From a virus: DNA of 64,000 nt. A program made the translations under genes and the position numbers. Below are positions 9,013 through 64,000 of the stretch, piece after piece (positions within the stretch are counted from its first letter, which is position 1; each line of letters begins with the position of its first letter). Below the pieces are notes generated by a model that worked only from the letters and a program-made list of their open reading frames with translations, made no database searches and was not told where the DNA came from. The stretch lies in the UHGV virus genome UHGV-1366603. The stretch is one strand, 5' to 3'.

Positions 9013-9573
9013 ATGTTTGAGCACGATAGTCCCGATTTTAATGTGGCTGTAGAGCGCATTAAAACCTATATGTCGATTTTATCAAAAAACCCAATCGACA
9101 CACACGATGACGAGCTTATTCACAAAACGCTGGAAGCGTGTGCGGTTGTATTACCGTACTTTCGTCTGTTAGCTGCTGACTCTGTGCAGCAGGTATTATA
9201 TGACGAATATCCGCAGGTCGGATTTACCTTTAATACGTTTTATAACGAAAGCGTAGCCTTCCTGCTTGATGGTAAACGACGCACTGTGACGTTAGGACAG
9301 TGGTCCGTATTGCTGTCGTCGTACATGAATGATGTTCGCAATACGAAGAACGTTGAACAGACGGGCTCATTGGGTGCACGTCTTCTTGCTGCTGCGTTTG
9401 GTCGCCGGGGTACTGTACGTAATATGGGTTCCGCTCACCAGTCTGTTGAGTGTAGCAAACGTCTTTTATCTTATGCAGACCATGAACTGCTGGCACGCTG
9501 GATGACACGCCCGAACGGGTTGTCCGACATGATCTCGTCGTTAGCAGTGTTTTTGAAAATCGCACGTCCCTAA
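9013..9573 (+). CDS. hypothetical protein (186 aa)
   Basis: ORF with TAGGAGAG RBS. Confidence 0.75.
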   Translation: MFEHDSPDFNVAVERIKTYMSILSKNPIDTHDDELIHKTLEACAVVLPYFRLLAADSVQQVLYDEYPQVGFTFNTFYNESVAFLLDGKRRTVTLGQWSVLLSSYMNDVRNTKNVEQTGSLGARLLAAAFGRRGTVRNMGSAHQSVECSKRLLSYADHELLARWMTRPNGLSDMISSLAVFLKIARP

Positions 9574-9604
9574 GGGGGCCCCTCATTCTAGGGGCGTGTA
9601 ATTG

Positions 9605-9616
9605 GGTTATATAACC
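9605..9616. promoter_or_regulatory. perfect 12-bp palindrome GGTTATATAACC upstream of highly expressed paralog gene (candidate promoter/operator)
   Basis: Read directly; sits 17 bp upstream of ATG 9633 between RBS and a GC hairpin. Confidence 0.3.
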
Positions 9617-9632
9617 AAAGGAAATAAACGAA

Positions 9633-10904
9633 ATGGCAAATTTCGCAAAAACTCGCGCCGCTCGTGAATCAATGGAAGCGGCCGATGAAGTAATCGACGG
9701 TATCAGCAACGTTGAACCGGCAGAAGAGAACCTGGACGTCCAGCTTGCGGACGTTGCATCTATCGACGGTCAGCTCGAACAGCTGGAAACCGACGGTGAA
9801 ACCCTGGCTGCCGATACCGAGCGTACTGAAGACGCTATCGAACAGGCGGAAGAAGCCGTTGCTAACGGTGAAGAAATGCCGGAAGAAGCGGTTGCCCTGC
9901 ATGAAGTGGCACAGGAATCCATCGCACGTCGTTGGAACCTGGAGCGTACTAAACTGGCTCGCGAATCCTATCGCCGTGGCCGTGGCATGACTGCTGCTGC
10001 GCAGGAAGGCTGGAAAGAAACCCTGAAAGGTCTTTACGAGCGTTTCATTCAGTTCTGTAAAGAAGTAATTGCGAAGATCAAAGACCTGAAACTGAAATAT
10101 TTCAACGTCGGTAAGACCGCACAGAAACGTGCGAAGAAATATCAGGAAATGATCCGCAAGCTGGGCAAACAAGATAAAGACAACATTTCTGGCGGCTTTA
10201 TCACCAAACTGTCCATCGAAGGTAAATTCGATGCTGCTGGCTCTATTGCCATTGCTAAAGAAGTGACCGCAGGTAAAGCTAAAGGTGCTATCAGTGCACT
10301 GGAAAAACAAGCTGGTGAAGCTGTGACTGCTGTTACCAAAGGTGACGATGACGCATTCAAAGCGATGCGTGGTGATCAGCCGGTTGAACTGTTTGGTAAA
10401 GCAGCGTCTAAACTGCATTCTCTGCCGAACTTTGAAAACGGCGATGCGTCTAAACTGCTGGCTCTGCCGGGCAACGCTTACGTTCAGGCTGGTACTAAAG
10501 AACTGGCTGGCGGCCACAAGTTCACCGCAATTGCGTTCATGAGCACCGGTGACGCTTCTGACGATAAAGAAGTGGCTACTCCGTCTGTTTCCGAAATGGC
10601 TGGCGCGGCATCTGCTCTGGAAGCGATCGGTAAAGGCTTCGAAGCTGTACTGAAAGATTTCCGTGCTTACGATTCTGAAATCGTGAAACTGCAACAGGCT
10701 GCTGAAAAAGCGTCCAACGCGCTGAACAACGAAAAAGACGAAAGTAAGTGGGAAGGACTGCGTAATGCACGTCAGGCCGCTGATCAGTCTGTGAAGAACT
10801 ACCAGACCCTGAACCGTGCCGTTAGCTATGTTGCTAACACCGTTATTAGCGGTCTGAACGGTTACCTGGGTGCTGGTATCGGCGCGTACAAAAAGTCTAA
10901 ATAA
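9633..10904 (+). CDS. abundant acidic-N-terminus protein, paralog A (423 aa); candidate head internal/scaffold-like virion protein
   Basis: Starts MANFAKTRAARESMEA, same as downstream paralog; strongly host-optimised codons (ctg/cgt/ggt/aac); long antisense shadow ORF. Confidence 0.85.
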   Translation: MANFAKTRAARESMEAADEVIDGISNVEPAEENLDVQLADVASIDGQLEQLETDGETLAADTERTEDAIEQAEEAVANGEEMPEEAVALHEVAQESIARRWNLERTKLARESYRRGRGMTAAAQEGWKETLKGLYERFIQFCKEVIAKIKDLKLKYFNVGKTAQKRAKKYQEMIRKLGKQDKDNISGGFITKLSIEGKFDAAGSIAIAKEVTAGKAKGAISALEKQAGEAVTAVTKGDDDAFKAMRGDQPVELFGKAASKLHSLPNFENGDASKLLALPGNAYVQAGTKELAGGHKFTAIAFMSTGDASDDKEVATPSVSEMAGAASALEAIGKGFEAVLKDFRAYDSEIVKLQQAAEKASNALNNEKDESKWEGLRNARQAADQSVKNYQTLNRAVSYVANTVISGLNGYLGAGIGAYKKSK

Positions 10905-10943: not shown

Positions 10944-10962
10944 GGGGAACGACGTGTTCCCC
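10944..10962 (+). other. intergenic hairpin GGGGAAC-GACGTG-TTCCCC between paralogs (weak terminator/processing site)
   Basis: Stem-loop seen in sequence; no strong T-run. Confidence 0.3.
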
Positions 10963-10980
10963 TTAGAGGAAAAGCTTAAA

Positions 10981-12243
10981 ATGGCAAATTTCGCAAAAAC
11001 TCGCGCCGCTCGTGAATCGATGGAAGCTACTGCTACTGTAGTTCCAGACGGCATCGAACTGCCAGCAGAATCTGTTGAAGGTACTCTGGCCGATATCGAA
11101 CATGATACCAAACCGATCGAAGCCCTGGACGCTGACGCTGAACTGCTGGCCGAAGACGGCGACGAAACTGATGCTCAACTGGATGTCCTGGATGAAGCTC
11201 AGGCCGCTGCCGACGGTGAAGGTGCTGGTGAAGACGGCGAAGAGCCGATGGACGCTGAAGAAGATATGCCGGACGACGCAGCGACTGCGCTGGACGTTGC
11301 TCAGGAATCTATCCGTTCTCGTTGGAACTTCGAACACCGTTCTTCCGTTGCACACGAATCCTACGGTTCTCGTAACCGTCGCCAGGTTGCTCGTGAATCC
11401 CTGTGGGAAGACATTAAAGCATTCCTGAAACGTATCTGGGAATGGCTGAAAGAACAAGGCCGTAAGATCAAAGATCGTTGGCTGAAATTCTCCAACCAGG
11501 GTAAATCCATCCAGGCTCGTTCTAAGAAATACGACGATGCTATTCGTAAACTGGGCAAACAGAAGAAAGATGAAATCTCTGGTGGCTTCATCAAGTCTCT
11601 GTCTATCGACGGTAAATTCGTTGGCGACGATCTGTCGCGCCTGAAGAATATCCTGAACCACGTCTCCACCTACTACAGTGGTAACGTTCAGAGCTTCCTG
11701 AACAACGGTACGGATATGGTTGGTAACGTCGTTAAAGGCGATGGTGCTAAAGTTGAGAAACTGAAAGCAGACTTCGCTGCTCTGGCTAAAGAAGACGTTA
11801 GCAAGTTCAAACTTGGTAACATGGCTCTGAAGATGGAGTACGACGAAGAAGGCGGATTTAGCTCCAGCTATGTGGAAGCTGAAAACCGTGCTGAAACCAA
11901 CGTGAAAACTCCGTCTGTTAGCGAACTGGCTAAGACCAATGCCTTCTTCAACGAAGTGGGTAAACAGATCGAGAAGAACGTTCTGGAATATCGTAAGACT
12001 GAACAGGCTCGCGAGAAATTCAGCCAGCAGATTGAGAAGCTGCTGAAAGAAATCGACAGCGTGAAGATCGACGAAAAACCGCAACTGACCGAATCTGTAC
12101 GTACCGCACGTCGTTACATCAACAGCATTAACCAGGCAGTGTCTCTGGGCGAGAAAGTTATTTCCTCTACTCAGAAACATCTGGCTGGCGGTCTGAACGG
12201 CTATATCTCCGCAGGTATCGCTGCTTACGAAAAATCTAAATAA
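10981..12243 (+). CDS. abundant acidic-N-terminus protein, paralog B (420 aa)
   Basis: Start set at MANFAKTRAARESMEA (track ORF begins upstream at 10954); shared N- and C-terminal motifs with paralog A (…GLNGY…AGI.AY.KSK). Confidence 0.85.
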   Translation: MANFAKTRAARESMEATATVVPDGIELPAESVEGTLADIEHDTKPIEALDADAELLAEDGDETDAQLDVLDEAQAAADGEGAGEDGEEPMDAEEDMPDDAATALDVAQESIRSRWNFEHRSSVAHESYGSRNRRQVARESLWEDIKAFLKRIWEWLKEQGRKIKDRWLKFSNQGKSIQARSKKYDDAIRKLGKQKKDEISGGFIKSLSIDGKFVGDDLSRLKNILNHVSTYYSGNVQSFLNNGTDMVGNVVKGDGAKVEKLKADFAALAKEDVSKFKLGNMALKMEYDEEGGFSSSYVEAENRAETNVKTPSVSELAKTNAFFNEVGKQIEKNVLEYRKTEQAREKFSQQIEKLLKEIDSVKIDEKPQLTESVRTARRYINSINQAVSLGEKVISSTQKHLAGGLNGYISAGIAAYEKSK

Positions 12244-12260
12244 TCTCTGATTGTTTAGTA

Positions 12261-12308
12261 GGAGAACCACCCTGTAATGGGGTGGTTCTCCCTTTTCTTT
12301 TTTTTTTC
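12261..12308 (+). terminator. intrinsic terminator
   Basis: GGAGAACCACCC-TGTAAT-GGGGTGGTTCTCC hairpin followed by long T-run. Confidence 0.9.
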
Positions 12309-12322
12309 GCATTAAAAATAAT

Positions 12323-20413: not shown

Positions 20414-20417
20414 AATT

Positions 20418-20457
20418 ATCCCGTTACCTTTGTGGGTAACGGGATGTCCTTTTATTT
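20418..20457 (+). terminator. intrinsic terminator
   Basis: TCCCGTTACC-TTTGTG-GGTAACGGGA hairpin then T-rich tail. Confidence 0.8.
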
Positions 20458-20610: not shown

Positions 20611-20649
20611 TAATACTCATTTATCGAATACCTAATTAGGAGCTATATC

Positions 20650-20793
20650 ATGATTTCTGTAAAACACAAAAAAGCTATCTTCGCTGTTGTTATCGCTGTT
20701 GTTCTGGGTTGCCTGTACCTGGATATCGACAAAGGCTACGACACTTGCATCGACAACGGTAACTCCGTTGCGCAGTGCACTGGTCGTGGTTAA
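20650..20793 (+). CDS. small single-pass membrane protein (47 aa), highly codon-optimised; missing from ORF track (<60 aa)
   Basis: TAGGAG RBS; MISVKHKKAIFAVVIAVVLGCLYLD… hydrophobic helix; own promoter-like motif and terminator. Confidence 0.7.
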   Translation: MISVKHKKAIFAVVIAVVLGCLYLDIDKGYDTCIDNGNSVAQCTGRG

Positions 20794-20798
20794 TGTAT

Positions 20799-20828
20799 AA
20801 GGCACCTTCGGGTGCCCTTAATTTTTTA
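20799..20828 (+). terminator. intrinsic terminator (UUCG tetraloop)
   Basis: GGCACC-TTCG-GGTGCC followed by T-run. Confidence 0.8.
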
Positions 20829-24474: not shown

Positions 24475-26760
24475 ATGAAAGATACCCGAATCTCTAATTT
24501 AGAGAAACTCGTAGAAGCCGGTACTAGTCTGGCCCAAAACGTCATCGGCAACAACACCGCCAGCGAAATGTGGAATACGATTGTTGCAGGCGAGTCCGTA
24601 CGCAGCAACGCAAAAGTGTTTGGCGCTCTGCGTGACGAAGCATCACAGCACTATGCCAACGCTTTTGGTGGCAAGAAAATGTCTCATGCTGCGACTGTCG
24701 CCTCCGCAATGATTCTGGGCGCAGCTAACCACGGTAAAGACCTGCAAGAACGTGTTGCCCAGGAATACGCTAAGCCGGAATTCCACACCAAGTATAACCT
24801 GGATATTGGTATCCCTGGTGCGCAAGGTGGTGACTGGGGTCGTGAGCGCATGGTTGTTGCTCAGGAATACTACAGCAACAAAGACTACGACAAAAACCTG
24901 GGCCTGACCTGGACCCTGAACGTACGTGCTCTGGAAACTCAGTCCAAGTTTGCTGAAACACTGTTCCCGACCATTACCGTCGACACCAACGATGTTGGTA
25001 TTACCGTACGTACTAAAGTGACTACCGTTTCTCGCGGTATCATGAACGCGCTGCTGAGCAAAGACGTCGTTGAAGATCATCGTCGTCCGCTGCACAACGC
25101 ACTGACTGACCACACCGTTCTCCAGGACGAAGCGATCAACATCGTTCCTTACGTAATGGAAACCGGTGAAAACCAGGAATACTTCGTAAGCGAAGAACTG
25201 GTTCCGAACGAAACCGTTCGCCTGGGTCGTGTACCTCCGTATCCGACTAACTACCTGAGCTTTGCAAACGACACGCTGAACCTGTTCCAGCTGTCTGCGC
25301 ATCCGGGTATCGTTCAGGAAGGTTACGAAGAAACTGATGAAATCGCACCGGGTTGTGCTCTGGGCAGCCTGCTGATTTCTGTACGTAAACCGGCCGAAGA
25401 AGCGAAAGCGGGTAAATTCATCAAACTGCACGTTCGTGACATGCAGTTCGCAACCTTCCAGCGTCCTGCTGAAGGTGACGGCCGTGAACTGGTTCTGCAA
25501 TTCCGTCGTACCGCGTTCTCTCTGAATGCGAAAACCACTGACTGGAAAGGCGACGCTATTCCGGCTCTGCAAGCACTGGGCCAGAACTCCTACACCCTGC
25601 GCTACGTTATCACCATCACCATGTCCCTGTTCACCAGCGGCCAGTTCGGTGGTAAAGTAGACATTTCCGGCCACAAACTGGAAATCGAAGGTCTGTACGA
25701 TGCAACTGGTAACAAAGTTGATACCAAGTCTGGTACCGGTAAAGTTATCCTGGATGGCCTGAAACTTGAACTGATGGGCTGGCGCTTCGATGGTACTCGT
25801 ACCAACGAAAACCGTCGTACCCAGGGTCTTCTGCTTGACCCAATTTGGGAACAGGAAAACTACAAACTGCAATACGGTTCTCCGATTCTGACCAAGTCTC
25901 CGGTTGGTGTTGAATACGACGACACTGAACGTCTGGACGACCTGATCTCTGCGGTGAACATCCGTAACGAACAGCTGGCTATTACTCAGACGCTGTCTTA
26001 CACCGAAGCAGTACGTAACGCAGCCGCTGCGATGATCACTCCGTGGGACAAACCGGCTATCCGTGGTCTGGGCCGTCACTGGGTTGCTCCGTGGTTCAAA
26101 GAGTCTGACTACAAAGTCGATGAAGTTGTTCAGTCTCTGGATACCAAAGAAGCGCTGATCAACGCTCGTCAGGGTCTGTTGCAGCGTATCGGTAGCCAGG
26201 TAACTCAGGCTATCCAGGATTCTCGTTTCATTCCTGCACTGCGCCTGCTGACCGCTGATCCGGACATTCTGCCGAAAGTTATTATCGCAACTGACGAACC
26301 GACTGCATCTATGCTGCTGCTGGTTCAGGGCGACCAACGTCTGCTGGGCGACCGTTATGAATACGAAGTCGTTACCACCAACGATGACCGCTGGCGCATC
26401 TACAACGCAGCTGACGATTCCTGGACTCGTCGTCTGCAATGGTTCCTGAAAGTTCCGACTGCGGACGATGGTTCCTACTGCGTACTGAACTGGGGTAACC
26501 ACTTCTGGTCTCCGATCATGGTTACCAACATCAACATCCAGCGTAACGGTTCTACTTCTAAAGAACTGGCTGTACAGCCGCGTAACGCGCATATCTGCCA
26601 CTGCCCGATCACTGGTCTGATTTGGGTTAAAGGCATCACCAAACTGGTTGAAGAAAAACTGGCTTACAACGTTTCTGTAGAACAGAACGGCCAGAAACAA
26701 ACCGACGGTGGTGTAGCAGGTAATGTTGCTGGCGACGGTAAAGACAAAGCTGGTAAATAA
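24475..26760 (+). CDS. major virion structural protein (761 aa); candidate major capsid protein (alternatively tail sheath)
   Basis: Extreme host-optimised codon usage, strong terminator after it, 685-aa antisense shadow ORF; size matches phiKZ-type major capsid proteins (from memory). Confidence 0.85.
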   Translation: MKDTRISNLEKLVEAGTSLAQNVIGNNTASEMWNTIVAGESVRSNAKVFGALRDEASQHYANAFGGKKMSHAATVASAMILGAANHGKDLQERVAQEYAKPEFHTKYNLDIGIPGAQGGDWGRERMVVAQEYYSNKDYDKNLGLTWTLNVRALETQSKFAETLFPTITVDTNDVGITVRTKVTTVSRGIMNALLSKDVVEDHRRPLHNALTDHTVLQDEAINIVPYVMETGENQEYFVSEELVPNETVRLGRVPPYPTNYLSFANDTLNLFQLSAHPGIVQEGYEETDEIAPGCALGSLLISVRKPAEEAKAGKFIKLHVRDMQFATFQRPAEGDGRELVLQFRRTAFSLNAKTTDWKGDAIPALQALGQNSYTLRYVITITMSLFTSGQFGGKVDISGHKLEIEGLYDATGNKVDTKSGTGKVILDGLKLELMGWRFDGTRTNENRRTQGLLLDPIWEQENYKLQYGSPILTKSPVGVEYDDTERLDDLISAVNIRNEQLAITQTLSYTEAVRNAAAAMITPWDKPAIRGLGRHWVAPWFKESDYKVDEVVQSLDTKEALINARQGLLQRIGSQVTQAIQDSRFIPALRLLTADPDILPKVIIATDEPTASMLLLVQGDQRLLGDRYEYEVVTTNDDRWRIYNAADDSWTRRLQWFLKVPTADDGSYCVLNWGNHFWSPIMVTNINIQRNGSTSKELAVQPRNAHICHCPITGLIWVKGITKLVEEKLAYNVSVEQNGQKQTDGGVAGNVAGDGKDKAGK

Positions 26761-26775
26761 TACCGAATAAAAAGT

Positions 26776-26816
26776 GTCTAAGCCCTTCGGGGCTTAGACC
26801 TTTTATTTTTTTTTTC
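26776..26816 (+). terminator. intrinsic terminator (UUCG tetraloop)
   Basis: GTCTAAGCCC-TTCG-GGGCTTAGAC followed by long T-run. Confidence 0.9.
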
Positions 26817-51852: not shown

Positions 51853-52170
51853 ATGTGGTTAAGTGCTATTCACCGTGATTTGCCAAAACGTGACGTGTCG
51901 TTTACTGTTGAGGACGCACCGATTGAGGTAGGCGTCGCTAAATTCGAAAGAATCGAAGAAGGGCAGTTTGTTGTAATGGATGGCAACGACAACGAATTTA
52001 TGTTGTATCATCCAGAAGTGGATACCTCTGAAATTTGTGACGGTGTTCTTTTGTTGTCCTGGCAAAACCAAGAAACTAAAGAATGGATGTGGTGTGTTGC
52101 TAAACCGACAAATGAAGCTGGAACCGCATACGTGTTTGGGGAAATTTATGTCGAACCCGAGCCACACTAA
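51853..52170 (+). CDS. hypothetical protein (105 aa)
   Basis: ORF with GAGGA RBS. Confidence 0.7.
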   Translation: MWLSAIHRDLPKRDVSFTVEDAPIEVGVAKFERIEEGQFVVMDGNDNEFMLYHPEVDTSEICDGVLLLSWQNQETKEWMWCVAKPTNEAGTAYVFGEIYVEPEPH

Positions 52171-61099: not shown

Positions 61100-61121
61100 T
61101 AACCCGCTTATAAAAAATATT

Positions 61122-61150
61122 GGGGGGGGGTAAGCTACTCCCCCGATCTT
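61122..61150 (+). other. G9 homopolymer tract plus weak hairpin (possible weak terminator)
   Basis: TGGGGGGGGG TAAGCTACT CCCCC then GATCTTT. Confidence 0.3.
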
Positions 61151-61176
61151 TAGCTCCCGATAGAGAACTTAATATC

Positions 61177-64000
61177 ATGGCGAAAGCGGTAAAGAAAATA
61201 CGATTGCATAATCTTAGGCCGTATACCGGTGATATCGGTGAAGGCGTTTTACTTTTCTCCAAGGATGAGAAAGATTATAAGTTACCAGTCCGTGAGGTTA
61301 TTGCAGATATTGACACCGTACGTAATGCGGTGGCTGATGCACAAACAGCAGCAGCGCAATCACAAGAAGCTGCAACTCAGGCTACACAAGCAAAGAATTT
61401 AGCAGAAACAGCAAAACAACAAACTGACACCGTTGCGGCTACGGTTGCTCAACAAGCACAAACCGTAACAGAAAAAGCAACGGAAGTCGGTACAAAACAC
61501 ACTGAAGTGTTAGCCGCGAAAACGGCGGTAGATACCCAGGTTGTGTCCGTTAATGAGAAAGCGCAAGCGGTAGCGGCAAGTGAGGCCAACGTCACGCAAG
61601 CAGAGACTACTGTTACGAAGAAAGCAGAAGCCGTTGCGACACAAGCCGGTCAAGTTGAACAGTCTCTTACGGCAGTTAACGAAGCTGTCGCGTCGGTAGA
61701 GTCGTCAAAAGCCTCTGTAGAAGCTACAGCAACGCAAGTTACCTCGGACAAAGAAACCGCAGAGAATGCGGCAACCCGTTCTGAGGCAGCCGCTAAGCGA
61801 GCAGAAGAAATTGTTGCACAAGGTACTGTTGATGCAACAACGTCCAGTAAAGGTATCGTTAAACTTAATAATACCTTAACCAGTGACTCGGTTACTGAAG
61901 CTGCTACTCCGTCAACGGTTAAGCAGTTAAATGATGATTTGCAGTTAAAAGCAAACCGTCACAACCCAACCTTTACCGGTACGGTAAAAGCACCAACCCC
62001 TGCTGCGGATTCTAACGACACGAGTGTCTCAACGACTGCATGGGTACGACAAGCGATTGCTGAATTAGTGGACTCTTCTCCCGAGACGTTAGATACGTTA
62101 TCAGAAATTGCAGCCGCGTTAGGAAACGATCCTAACTTTGCGACAACGATAACGAATCAGCTCGCGGGTAAACAGCCGTTAAGTCCGTTACTGACAGCGA
62201 TTGCCGCAGTCACCACCGCTGCAAACAAACTCCCTTACTTTACCGGTAGTAATCAGGTAGGGTTAGCGGATTTCACCTCGACCGCACGCGATTTATTAGC
62301 AAAAGGGTCGACGGCCGATATCATTAGCTTCCTGGGTTTGAAAACTACCGTCGATAAAGCTGCGGGGGCGATGCAGCGCAATTCTAATGGTGCAGATATT
62401 CCTGACAAAGCCACCTTCGCGAAGAATATTGGATTGTCAGCAGAGACGTATCTGAAGTTTAATGGGGAGATGGCAGTAGATGCAGATATCAACACCTTCG
62501 GCCCAGTCGAAGCGTTTATGGGTGTTTGGTCTAAAGCCACGTCTACGAATGCAACAATTGCAAAGAACTTCCCGGAAGATGATGCAGTTGGTTACTTAGA
62601 AGTATTCAAAGCAGGTAACTACAGCGGAAGTCAACGTTTTACCATACGTAACGGTAACGTCTATACTCGTCGTTTAACAGGAACCTGGAACGGTACTAAC
62701 GGCCCTTGGTCACCCTGGAGAATGACAACCACCGCGAACCGTCCGCTCTCTACCACTATTGACCTTAACACCTTAGGTGGTGTTGAACACATGGGTCAGT
62801 GGCGTAACTCCAGTTCTTCTCTTGCGACGTTCGATCGTCATTATCCCGAAGAAGGTGGTAATGCTCAAGGTGTGTTAGAAGTAATGGAAGGTGGTCTCTA
62901 CGGACGTATGCAACGTTACACCACTCGTCGTGGTACGATGTATATCCGTGGGTTGACTGCGACTTGGGATGCGTCTAATCCGCAGTGGGAAGACTGGATT
63001 CAAGTTGGGTATCAGGTAGACGGTGCCTACTATAAGGGTAGCTTTAATAACTTAACTAAACCCGGTCGTTTTAGTGTTACCGGTGAGGCTACTGACGGAC
63101 CGTTAACAGGGCCTTCTGGTGAAACTTTGTTAGGTGTCTGTGAAGTCACCCTGCGCTTAGACGGTGTAGGTGTCGAACAAAATTACACCACTTACGGTAC
63201 AGGTGCTATTTATAAAGGTCGTAAGTTCCATCGTATCCGTACGGGGAATGTCTGGAGCGAGTGGCGTGAAGTTTATACGTCTAGTTCATTAGCGATGCTT
63301 TTAGGAATCGGTGGAGTTGCAGCTAAGGTCGATCCGTTGGACTGGCAAACCTACGACTTCGTTCCTGGACAGATGTTAACGACACCGTTGAACACCATGA
63401 AAAACATTCCTGCGGGAATGGATTGGGGTGTGATCAACGGTAACTTAGTTAACATCCTTGTAGGTCCGTCTGACGACACTGGTACCGGCCGCAGTATGCT
63501 GGTTTGGCGTAGCACGGTGTCTACTGCCAACTATCGCTTCTTTGCGGTACGTATCGCCGGTGAGAAGGGTAGTCGTACGATTACACCACGCCAGATGCCT
63601 GTATTGAACGCAGCGCACACCTGGGCAGAGAAACAGACCTTTGCAAAAGGGTTAGCAGGTGAGTTAACAGGCAATGCTTCAACCGCCACTAAATTAAAGA
63701 CGGCACGTAGAATTGGTGGGGTCGCCTTCGACGGTAGCGGCGATGTTAACCTCCCAGGTGTTAACCAACAAGGTAATCAAAACACCACGGGTAACGCCGC
63801 GACAGCCACTAAACTTCAAACTGCCAGAAATATTAACGGTGTGAGATTCGATGGTTCTGCTGACATCAATATCAACACCCTGGTGGGTCGTGGTCGGGTT
63901 ACCGCTCTAACCGGTTCAAACAAAGGTACACCTGGTATTCAAATGTACGAAGTTTACAATAACGGTTATCCAACCGCTTATGGTAACTTACTGCATTTGG
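61177..64000 (+). CDS. tail fibre protein, 3'-truncated at window edge
   Basis: Not in ORF track (no stop in window); Ala/Thr/Gln-rich coiled-coil, SSKGIVKLNN…ATPSTVKQLND and NPTFTGTVKAPTPAADSNDTSVSTTAWVRQAI tail-fibre motifs, two tail-fibre repeats near 63673-63870. Confidence 0.85.
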   Translation, partial: MAKAVKKIRLHNLRPYTGDIGEGVLLFSKDEKDYKLPVREVIADIDTVRNAVADAQTAAAQSQEAATQATQAKNLAETAKQQTDTVAATVAQQAQTVTEKATEVGTKHTEVLAAKTAVDTQVVSVNEKAQAVAASEANVTQAETTVTKKAEAVATQAGQVEQSLTAVNEAVASVESSKASVEATATQVTSDKETAENAATRSEAAAKRAEEIVAQGTVDATTSSKGIVKLNNTLTSDSVTEAATPSTVKQLNDDLQLKANRHNPTFTGTVKAPTPAADSNDTSVSTTAWVRQAIAELVDSSPETLDTLSEIAAALGNDPNFATTITNQLAGKQPLSPLLTAIAAVTTAANKLPYFTGSNQVGLADFTSTARDLLAKGSTADIISFLGLKTTVDKAAGAMQRNSNGADIPDKATFAKNIGLSAETYLKFNGEMAVDADINTFGPVEAFMGVWSKATSTNATIAKNFPEDDAVGYLEVFKAGNYSGSQRFTIRNGNVYTRRLTGTWNGTNGPWSPWRMTTTANRPLSTTIDLNTLGGVEHMGQWRNSSSSLATFDRHYPEEGGNAQGVLEVMEGGLYGRMQRYTTRRGTMYIRGLTATWDASNPQWEDWIQVGYQVDGAYYKGSFNNLTKPGRFSVTGEATDGPLTGPSGETLLGVCEVTLRLDGVGVEQNYTTYGTGAIYKGRKFHRIRTGNVWSEWREVYTSSSLAMLLGIGGVAAKVDPLDWQTYDFVPGQMLTTPLNTMKNIPAGMDWGVINGNLVNILVGPSDDTGTGRSMLVWRSTVSTANYRFFAVRIAGEKGSRTITPRQMPVLNAAHTWAEKQTFAKGLAGELTGNASTATKLKTARRIGGVAFDGSGDVNLPGVNQQGNQNTTGNAATATKLQTARNINGVRFDGSADININTLVGRGRVTALTGSNKGTPGIQMYEVYNNGYPTAYGNLLHL
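63673..63870 (+). repeat. two tandem phage tail-fibre repeats (protein level)
   Basis: NASTATKLKTARRIGGVAFDGSGDVNL and NAATATKLQTARNINGVRFDGSADINI. Confidence 0.7.

Follow-up and report, generated by a model that had tools for sequence, protein, structure and literature searches.

Host-preferred codons in the head and tail genes of phages have been documented by Lucks, Nelson, Kudla and Plotkin in 2008 (PMC2266997), and long open reading frames (ORFs) lying opposite genes in frame -1 are attributed to codon bias in the passage of Mir et al. 2012 (PMC3454372) that cites Merino 1994 and Silke 1997. Work on Salmonella phage SPN3US (PMC5694885) showed which proteins such a phage makes in bulk: by mass spectrometry gp75, gp53 and gp54 rank first to third among the virion proteins, with values of SC/M, the abundance measure used there, of 22.6, 21.0 and 20.2, the next protein standing at 9.5. 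The capsid protein gp75 is present in 1,560 copies and cut at ATE-130, and gp53 and gp54, which share the N-terminal start MANFVKSKLARESVE, are each estimated at more than 600 copies per head (PMC5694885). How does a related phage known from metagenomic DNA compare? The stretch analysed here, called the window below, comprises 64,000 nucleotides of the virus genome UHGV-1366603. It holds four genes, for a major capsid protein (MCP), two internal head protein paralogs (IP1 and IP2) and a protein of 47 amino acids, whose codon usage stands far from that of the other genes, and three of them are overlaid by long antisense ORFs. Why are these genes so biased? Are the antisense ORFs genes at all? 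In our judgement the bias very probably stems from translational selection on those genes of the phage that are translated most, and the antisense ORFs very probably follow from it as a by-product of simple arithmetic.

The original prediction held that the four genes use almost only preferred codons of the E. coli type, that long antisense frames arise from this as artefacts, and that the bias flags the most highly expressed late proteins. Its ORFs are where it placed them, in sense at 24475-26760 (plus strand, 761 amino acids), 9633-10904 (plus), 10954-12243 (plus) and 20650-20793 (plus, 47 amino acids), and in antisense at 24643-26700, 9669-10694 and 10963-12312. Codon usage was scored with the codon adaptation index (CAI), a concept introduced by Sharp and Li in 1987. 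The weights came from 30 E. coli K-12 genes for ribosomal proteins, EF-Tu and EF-G (4,894 codons), and on the ln w scale their correlation with the Sharp-Li table is 0.97. The CAI is 0.915 for the 47-amino acid gene, 0.765 for MCP, 0.756 for IP2 and 0.751 for IP1, compared with a mean of 0.376 (standard deviation 0.068, maximum 0.528) for the 62 other window genes of at least 80 amino acids. The four genes lie at z = 5.5-8.0 in that distribution, and the proposed check, a per-gene CAI against host-type weights, therefore does separate them from their neighbours. When the same proteins were redrawn with synonymous codons at bulk frequencies, the observed CAI was never reached (0/1000 redraws for the long genes and 0/5000 for the 47-amino acid gene; z = 7-25). 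In an unsupervised principal component analysis of relative synonymous codon usage only the three long genes lie at the far end of axis 1, which carries 25% of the variance and correlates with CAI at r = 0.94.

The codons themselves tell the same story. CTG makes up 90% of the leucine codons in the four genes and 23% in the others, and CGT 78% and 58% of the arginine codons, respectively. TTA takes 1% of leucine codons in the four genes versus 31% in the others, ACG 4% versus 36% of threonine codons, GGG 0% versus 19% and ATA 0% versus 11% of the codons for their amino acids. The prediction that the other genes use TTA, ACG and CGA freely thus holds for the first two codons and fails for CGA, which accounts for 8% of their arginine codons. 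Synonymous codon fractions in the four genes match those of the E. coli ribosomal-protein and elongation-factor genes at r = 0.981, versus 0.743 for the bulk phage genes, and the top codon is common to the four genes and the E. coli set for 17 of 18 amino acids; together with the CAI outliers and the codon shares, this bears out the claim of almost exclusive use of preferred codons. Along the MCP gene there is a 5' ramp, the CAI rising from 0.39 (codons 2-30) through 0.61 (31-100) to 0.81 in the rest. Phage tRNAs or structured RNAs were considered as a cause and rejected: the window is without tRNAs and without Rfam matches.

What do the three long genes encode? The product of 24475-26760 (plus strand, 761 amino acids, effective number of codons (Nc) 33) is a major capsid protein of the phiKZ gp120 and SPN3US gp75 type. 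It matches Pfam PF25620 PhiKZ_MCP over profile positions 2-634 of 635 (E = 1.3e-207, 691 bits with a cut-off of 27), PHROG 3231, major head protein (E = 6.7e-279), and in the PDB major capsid chains at E = 2e-49 and phiKZ gp120 (8y6v) at E = 3e-34. It has 77% amino acid identity to SPN3US gp75, with approximately 80% nucleotide identity in the gene, and by orthology with gp75 it would make a T=27 shell and be processed by the prohead protease. A terminator-like hairpin with a 10-bp stem, bidirectional, stands directly 3' of the gene at 26776-26799 (plus strand). The sequence TCATTTATC, of which the window has just two copies, 20-25 nucleotides 5' of the start codons of MCP and of the 47-amino acid gene, was considered as a shared promoter motif and dismissed as coincidence, as the MCP copy is part of the gene that precedes MCP, at its conserved end, and the other copy is absent in Asesino and SPN3US.

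The internal head proteins are a tandem paralog pair, both starting MANFAKTRAARESMEA. IP1 (9633-10904, plus strand, 423 amino acids) is the orthologue of SPN3US gp53, with 70% identity, and matches Pfam PF12699 phiKZ_IP (E = 6.6e-74, 249.9 bits with a cut-off of 27) and PHROG 2497. IP2, the orthologue of gp54 with 58% amino acid identity, matches PF12699 at E = 3.9e-59 (201.2 bits, same cut-off). An ORF does run from 10954 to 12243, as proposed for the second paralog, but the true start is the ATG at 10981 and not the GTG at 10954, judging from the match to the N-terminus of the first paralog and from public gene calls; IP2 then spans 10981-12243 (plus strand) and has 420 amino acids, the same product as in those calls. 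By orthology both proteins would be packaged at high copy and ejected. The first 16 codons of the two genes (9633-9680 and 10981-11028) are identical at 46 of 48 nucleotides, with synonymous sites kept too, and only 23 of 72 nucleotides agree in the next 24 codons. This suggests gene conversion or a constraint at the level of RNA or translation, added to the propeptide or capsid-targeting role that has been proposed for SPN3US gp53/gp54. Directly 3' of IP2 lies a terminator-like hairpin (12261-12291, plus strand) with a 14-bp stem followed by a T-run. The intergenic stretch 5' of IP1 (9560-9632) hardly differs between the window, Asesino and SPN3US; it holds a GC-rich hairpin (CCCTAAGGGGGCCCC...TAGGGGCG), then TGTAATTGGGTTATATAACC, and forms a conserved terminator- or promoter-like element ahead of the pair.

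The window is part of an uncultivated SPN3US- and Asesino-like, phiKZ-related jumbo phage from the human gut, because its relatives are syntenic and its exact proteins occur on gut-metagenome contigs. The region around the capsid gene has approximately 80% nucleotide identity with Erwinia phages Asesino and phiEaH2 and with SPN3US, in the same gene order, and the exact proteins are found in a human gut metagenome (ERR636350/PRJEB7369), on contigs of approximately 221-223 kb, as well as on one contig each of a JGI metagenome and of an NCBI assembly. Megablast against deposited phages gave almost no similarity outside the conserved head genes and no close relative in the phage collection; the phage has no cultured close relatives.

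Could the distinct codon usage come from elsewhere, by recent horizontal transfer out of a host-like genome, or from base composition, as in a local GC island? GC is slightly raised at 25-26 kb (0.516, in a genome of approximately 46% GC) and CAI does correlate with GC content at third codon positions (GC3), weakly (r = 0.38). However, the GC3 of the biased genes (0.48-0.54) lies within the range of the others (0.33-0.59), and T or A is the last base of many preferred codons (GGT, CGT, GCT, GTT, TCT, ACT, GAA and AAA), so that the bias is not driven by GC3 and there is no compositional island. The biased genes are moreover core head genes of the phiKZ lineage, syntenic with Asesino and SPN3US, and in the Asesino region the highest CAI values (0.75, 0.73 and 0.70) again belong to the orthologues of the three long genes. 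Since the bias of these orthologues persists across dS values of 0.6-1.3, it is maintained and not left over from a transfer. Nor would resemblance to host DNA yield a value of 0.75, since the poorly expressed gsp and chiA genes of E. coli score 0.22-0.53 with the same index. A foreign or compositional source of the bias is therefore very improbable.

Translational selection leads to an expectation about protein abundance, and here SPN3US offers a yardstick. Across 25 genes, CAI in the window correlates with the SC/M of the SPN3US orthologues at Spearman rho = 0.82 (p = 4e-7), and still at 0.74 (p = 8e-5) without the top three genes. Window genes with a virion orthologue have a mean CAI of 0.452 and the rest 0.356 (p = 3e-4). 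In SPN3US itself, scored as the complete genome rejoined from five pieces, CAI and SC/M correlate at Spearman 0.78 for the 22 proteins of Table 1 in PMC5694885 and at 0.42 (p = 6e-5) when all 86 virion proteins are taken, for which the Pearson coefficient with log SC/M is 0.63. Judged through orthologues that rank first to third in the virion, the bias thus does flag the most highly expressed proteins, as had been predicted; that the three head genes are late is likely from their roles as head proteins. Since CAI tracks orthologue abundance, the bias is the top of a gradient and not a strict split into two classes. The four genes are far outliers, as a dichotomy would have it, but the word overstates the case: five window genes have a CAI of 0.50-0.53, and the CAI distribution of SPN3US is continuous. 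The top values there are 0.771 for gp75, 0.743 for gp53, 0.724 for gp22 and 0.705 for gp54, followed by gp252, the tail tube protein gp255, gp29 and gp141. High CAI is not limited to virion proteins, as gp22 is absent from the 86-protein virion list. This protein of 617 amino acids (JN641803.1 15768-17621) belongs to PHROG 8316, and comparison with Pfam, PHROGs and PDB sequences gave no function, with no Pfam or PDB match; its orthologue lies outside the window. It is possibly an abundant nuclear-shell protein or another intracellular protein that is highly expressed.

Is abundance what is selected for? The bias may instead serve translational accuracy, co-translational folding, mRNA stability, or freedom from tRNAs that run short or are cut when infection is advanced. 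By sequence alone such selection is inseparable from selection on abundance, the biased genes do encode long assembly proteins, and the bulk genes lean heavily on the decoders of TTA and ACG, which the biased genes avoid. Yet the correlation with virion copy number outlasts the removal of the top three genes, and large proteins of low copy number are not optimised (CAI 0.44 for the portal, 0.39 for a tail-associated protein of 1001 amino acids and 0.39 for the tail fibre). Folding would in addition not explain why the strongest bias falls in a peptide of 47 amino acids. We regard these other forms of selection as quite unlikely to be the cause.

Selection for abundant translation, the reading that we prefer, could work as follows. 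With approximately 1,560 MCP copies in a T=27 head and more than 600 of each internal head protein, the demand on translation would be heavy. Because these proteins are needed at high copy number, selection would push the synonymous sites of their genes towards the codons that abundant host tRNAs read fastest, and the favoured set would be that of the ribosomal-protein and elongation-factor genes of an enterobacterial host. The remaining genes would drift to the phage's AT-richer mutational equilibrium, with codons such as TTA, ACG, ATT and GGG. The 5' ramp of MCP and the strong terminator-like hairpins behind every biased unit fit this account. Several points weigh against this account. The E. 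coli weights are a proxy, the host being predicted rather than known, and the Shine-Dalgarno matches of the four genes are not above the genome-wide distribution. SC/M reports virion stoichiometry and not the rate of synthesis, and expression in this phage, seen here through orthologues only, would have to mirror that in SPN3US. The 47-amino acid gene fits least well: its orthologues have a lower CAI (0.667 for SPN3US gp66 and 0.541 for Asesino gp84), and gp66 is not among the 86 virion proteins detected in SPN3US (PMC5694885).

The antisense ORFs over the long genes are all on the minus strand and, by coordinate arithmetic, exactly codon-aligned with the sense genes, in frame -1. The one over MCP (24643-26700) has a TTG start and 685 amino acids, that over IP1 (9669-10694) has 341 amino acids, and that over IP2 (10963-12312), with 449 amino acids, exceeds the real gene. 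None of these shadow ORFs is a gene. In this alignment an antisense stop is possible only opposite a sense TTA, CTA or TCA. These are non-preferred codons for leucine and serine, and their purging leaves frame -1 open over nearly the whole gene. The counts agree: frame -1 is open across the genes because the three codons are almost missing, with 3 among 1,647 codons in the biased genes compared with approximately 4.5% in the others. MCP has two, IP1 one and IP2 none, where bulk usage would give approximately 32, 15 and 17 (the last computed with the 10954 start), and the few that occur lie near the 5' ends, at codons 8 and 56 of MCP and 12 of IP1 (0-based, counted from the ATG). Open antisense runs reach 704, 410 and 425 codons, and recoding with bulk usage gives means of 78-87 and a maximum of 252, so that 0 of 2000 recodings reach the observed lengths.

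Might at least the 685-amino acid ORF be a real overlapping gene, with TTA, CTA and TCA avoided in part to keep such frames open? The frames are extraordinarily long for a genome of 46% GC, the one over MCP is free of stops in both Asesino (770/770 codons open) and SPN3US (767/767), and some antisense ORFs have been argued to be functional (PMC7457138, PMC8850804). The three shadow-stop codons are also depleted somewhat more in the biased genes, 17-fold, than other rare codons, approximately 8-fold. The latter cannot give antisense stops (AGA, AGG, CGA, CGG, ATA, GGA, GGG, CCC, TCG, ACA, ACG, TTG, CTC, CTT and AGT), and since they are purged too, the purge is general and not aimed at the antisense frame. 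Measured against Asesino and SPN3US, dN/dS is 0.22-0.32 for the sense frames, with substitutions mostly at third positions, whereas the antisense frames have 1.16-1.56 (MCP 1.42-1.56, IP1 1.38-1.39, IP2 1.16-1.19), and the antisense 'proteins' are 41-59% identical where the sense proteins are 63-79% identical. In SPN3US the antisense frames of the internal head proteins are broken, with 237 of 426 codons open in gp53 and 282 of 420 in gp54. Scored as genes, the long antisense ORFs have a CAI of 0.35-0.41 (0.387 for 24643-26700), the one at 10963-12312 would start past the terminator hairpin of IP2, and public gene calls on the source contigs include none of the three. Purifying selection and a conserved frame, the marks of a functional antisense gene, are absent, and frame -1 is precisely the frame known to open through codon bias (PMC3454372). 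That these ORFs are real genes is extremely improbable, and the prediction that they are artefacts of the bias is well founded. Two other plus-strand genes have an essentially open frame -1. One, at 2-478, is the C-terminal part of the orthologue of the SPN3US head protein gp45 (CAI 0.528, without TTA, CTA or TCA); the other, at 51853-52170, has 105 amino acids and a CAI of 0.43, with an antisense ORF of 102 amino acids at 51859-52167. Both are smaller shadow ORFs of the same kind, that of the short gene possibly by chance.

The 47-amino acid gene (20650-20793, plus strand) has the highest CAI in the window and belongs to PHROG 8574 (E = 3.4e-23). It is itself spanned by a shadow ORF, an artefact of 57 amino acids on the minus strand (20632-20805) with a CAI of 0.386, where the gene itself has 0.915. 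In the protein a basic N-terminus is combined with a single hydrophobic helix and a C-terminal C-x9-C...TGRG that is conserved in orthologues, and it looks like a single-pass membrane peptide with its N-terminus predicted inside. A lipoprotein was considered and rejected, as the VLGC lipobox-like site is not kept in orthologues. These orthologues are SPN3US gp66, Asesino gp84 and those of approximately 12 other Erwinia and Salmonella jumbo phages, and the family appears limited to SPN3US-like jumbo phages of these two genera. The gene has a strong TAGGAG Shine-Dalgarno sequence 5' of it and a terminator-like hairpin directly 3' (20801-20816, plus strand), which together with a hairpin further 5' (20417-20446) brackets a monocistronic unit. 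The product may be abundant. We suggest tentatively, at somewhat less than even chances, that it is among the most heavily translated in SPN3US-like jumbo phages, an unrecognised abundant single-pass membrane peptide that virion proteomics would miss. As guesses at its role one could name the timing of lysis, superinfection exclusion and the remodelling of membrane at the early infection vesicle.

Which host could have shaped such codon usage? The S10/spc ribosomal-protein operons of 80 genomes were drawn on, and the biased phage set was compared with those of approximately 78 Gammaproteobacteria. The fit is best for Enterobacteriaceae; E. coli has the highest likelihood, and practically level with it are Salmonella, Citrobacter, Kosakonia, Atlantibacter and Raoultella (r = 0.97-0.98). 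It falls to 0.90-0.97 for most Erwiniaceae, Pectobacteriaceae and Yersiniaceae, to 0.73-0.84 for Providencia, Proteus and Xenorhabdus, and to 0.24-0.66 for Pasteurellaceae, Orbaceae and insect endosymbionts. Because the fit is best for this family and the source is the human gut, the data support an E. coli-like host among the Enterobacteriaceae, at a resolution above the genus. The optimised genes thus bear a host-codon imprint that gives a usable host prediction (Escherichia-, Citrobacter- or Salmonella-like) for a gut jumbo phage.

At the end of the window, the stretch at 61.1-64 kb had the appearance of an A-rich region free of ORFs (AT skew 0.24), an impression that does not hold. It is a tail-fibre gene of at least 960 codons on the plus strand (61120-64000 and past the window end), with matches to PHROG tail-fibre families and Pfam Phage_fiber_2 and a CAI of 0.39, and it was absent from the ORF list because it runs past the window end. 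At the equivalent position, after gp124, SPN3US has a run of small genes (gp125-137).

The finding is correct and ordinary and leaves current understanding unchanged: codon bias in head genes and shadow ORFs in frame -1 are both published, textbook phenomena, and the abundance of the orthologues is known as well. Beside the host prediction it has two practical uses. Annotation that simply takes the longest ORF would be misled by the shadow ORFs, one of which exceeds its true gene in length, and they should not be reported as genes. In an uncultivated jumbo phage CAI alone singles out the virion proteins of high copy number, and since it ranks the others in line with the mass-spectrometry stoichiometry of a relative, it offers a cheap predictor of abundance for metagenomic phages.

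How, then, does the locus stand beside the systems described before? In the phages of Lucks 2008 (PMC2266997), as here, the bias is independent of GC3 and has been read as selection for efficient translation. What differs is the setting, an uncultivated phiKZ-related jumbo phage; the contrast, which is unusually sharp, with three genes at the level of host ribosomal proteins; and the location of the strongest bias, which falls in packaged internal (ejection) proteins as well as in the capsid shell. The shadow ORFs correspond to those of the literature on frame -1 (PMC3454372) in being codon-aligned antisense frames due to scarce TTA, CTA and TCA. Nothing essential differs, although the lengths are extreme here (704 codons at 46% GC, and one ORF exceeding its parent gene). 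Translated antisense overlapping genes of bacteria (Pseudomonas aeruginosa, PMC8850804; reviewed in PMC7457138) are likewise long ORFs antisense inside annotated genes; however, those are backed by translation and purifying selection, whereas the frames described here have dN/dS above 1 and lie in the frame that the bias explains. The closest counterparts are SPN3US gp75 and gp53/gp54, the latter belonging to paralog family A (pfam12699), whose members are ejected from the head and present there in high copy (Ali et al. 2017, PMC5694885). They are orthologous and syntenic with the genes of the window, the paralogs of both phages have an identical start of the N-terminal propeptide, and the genes show the same codon bias (in SPN3US, CAI 0.77, 0.74 and 0.70). 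The window nevertheless belongs to a different phage, with little DNA similarity outside MCP, and the antisense frames of the internal head proteins, interrupted in SPN3US, are open here.

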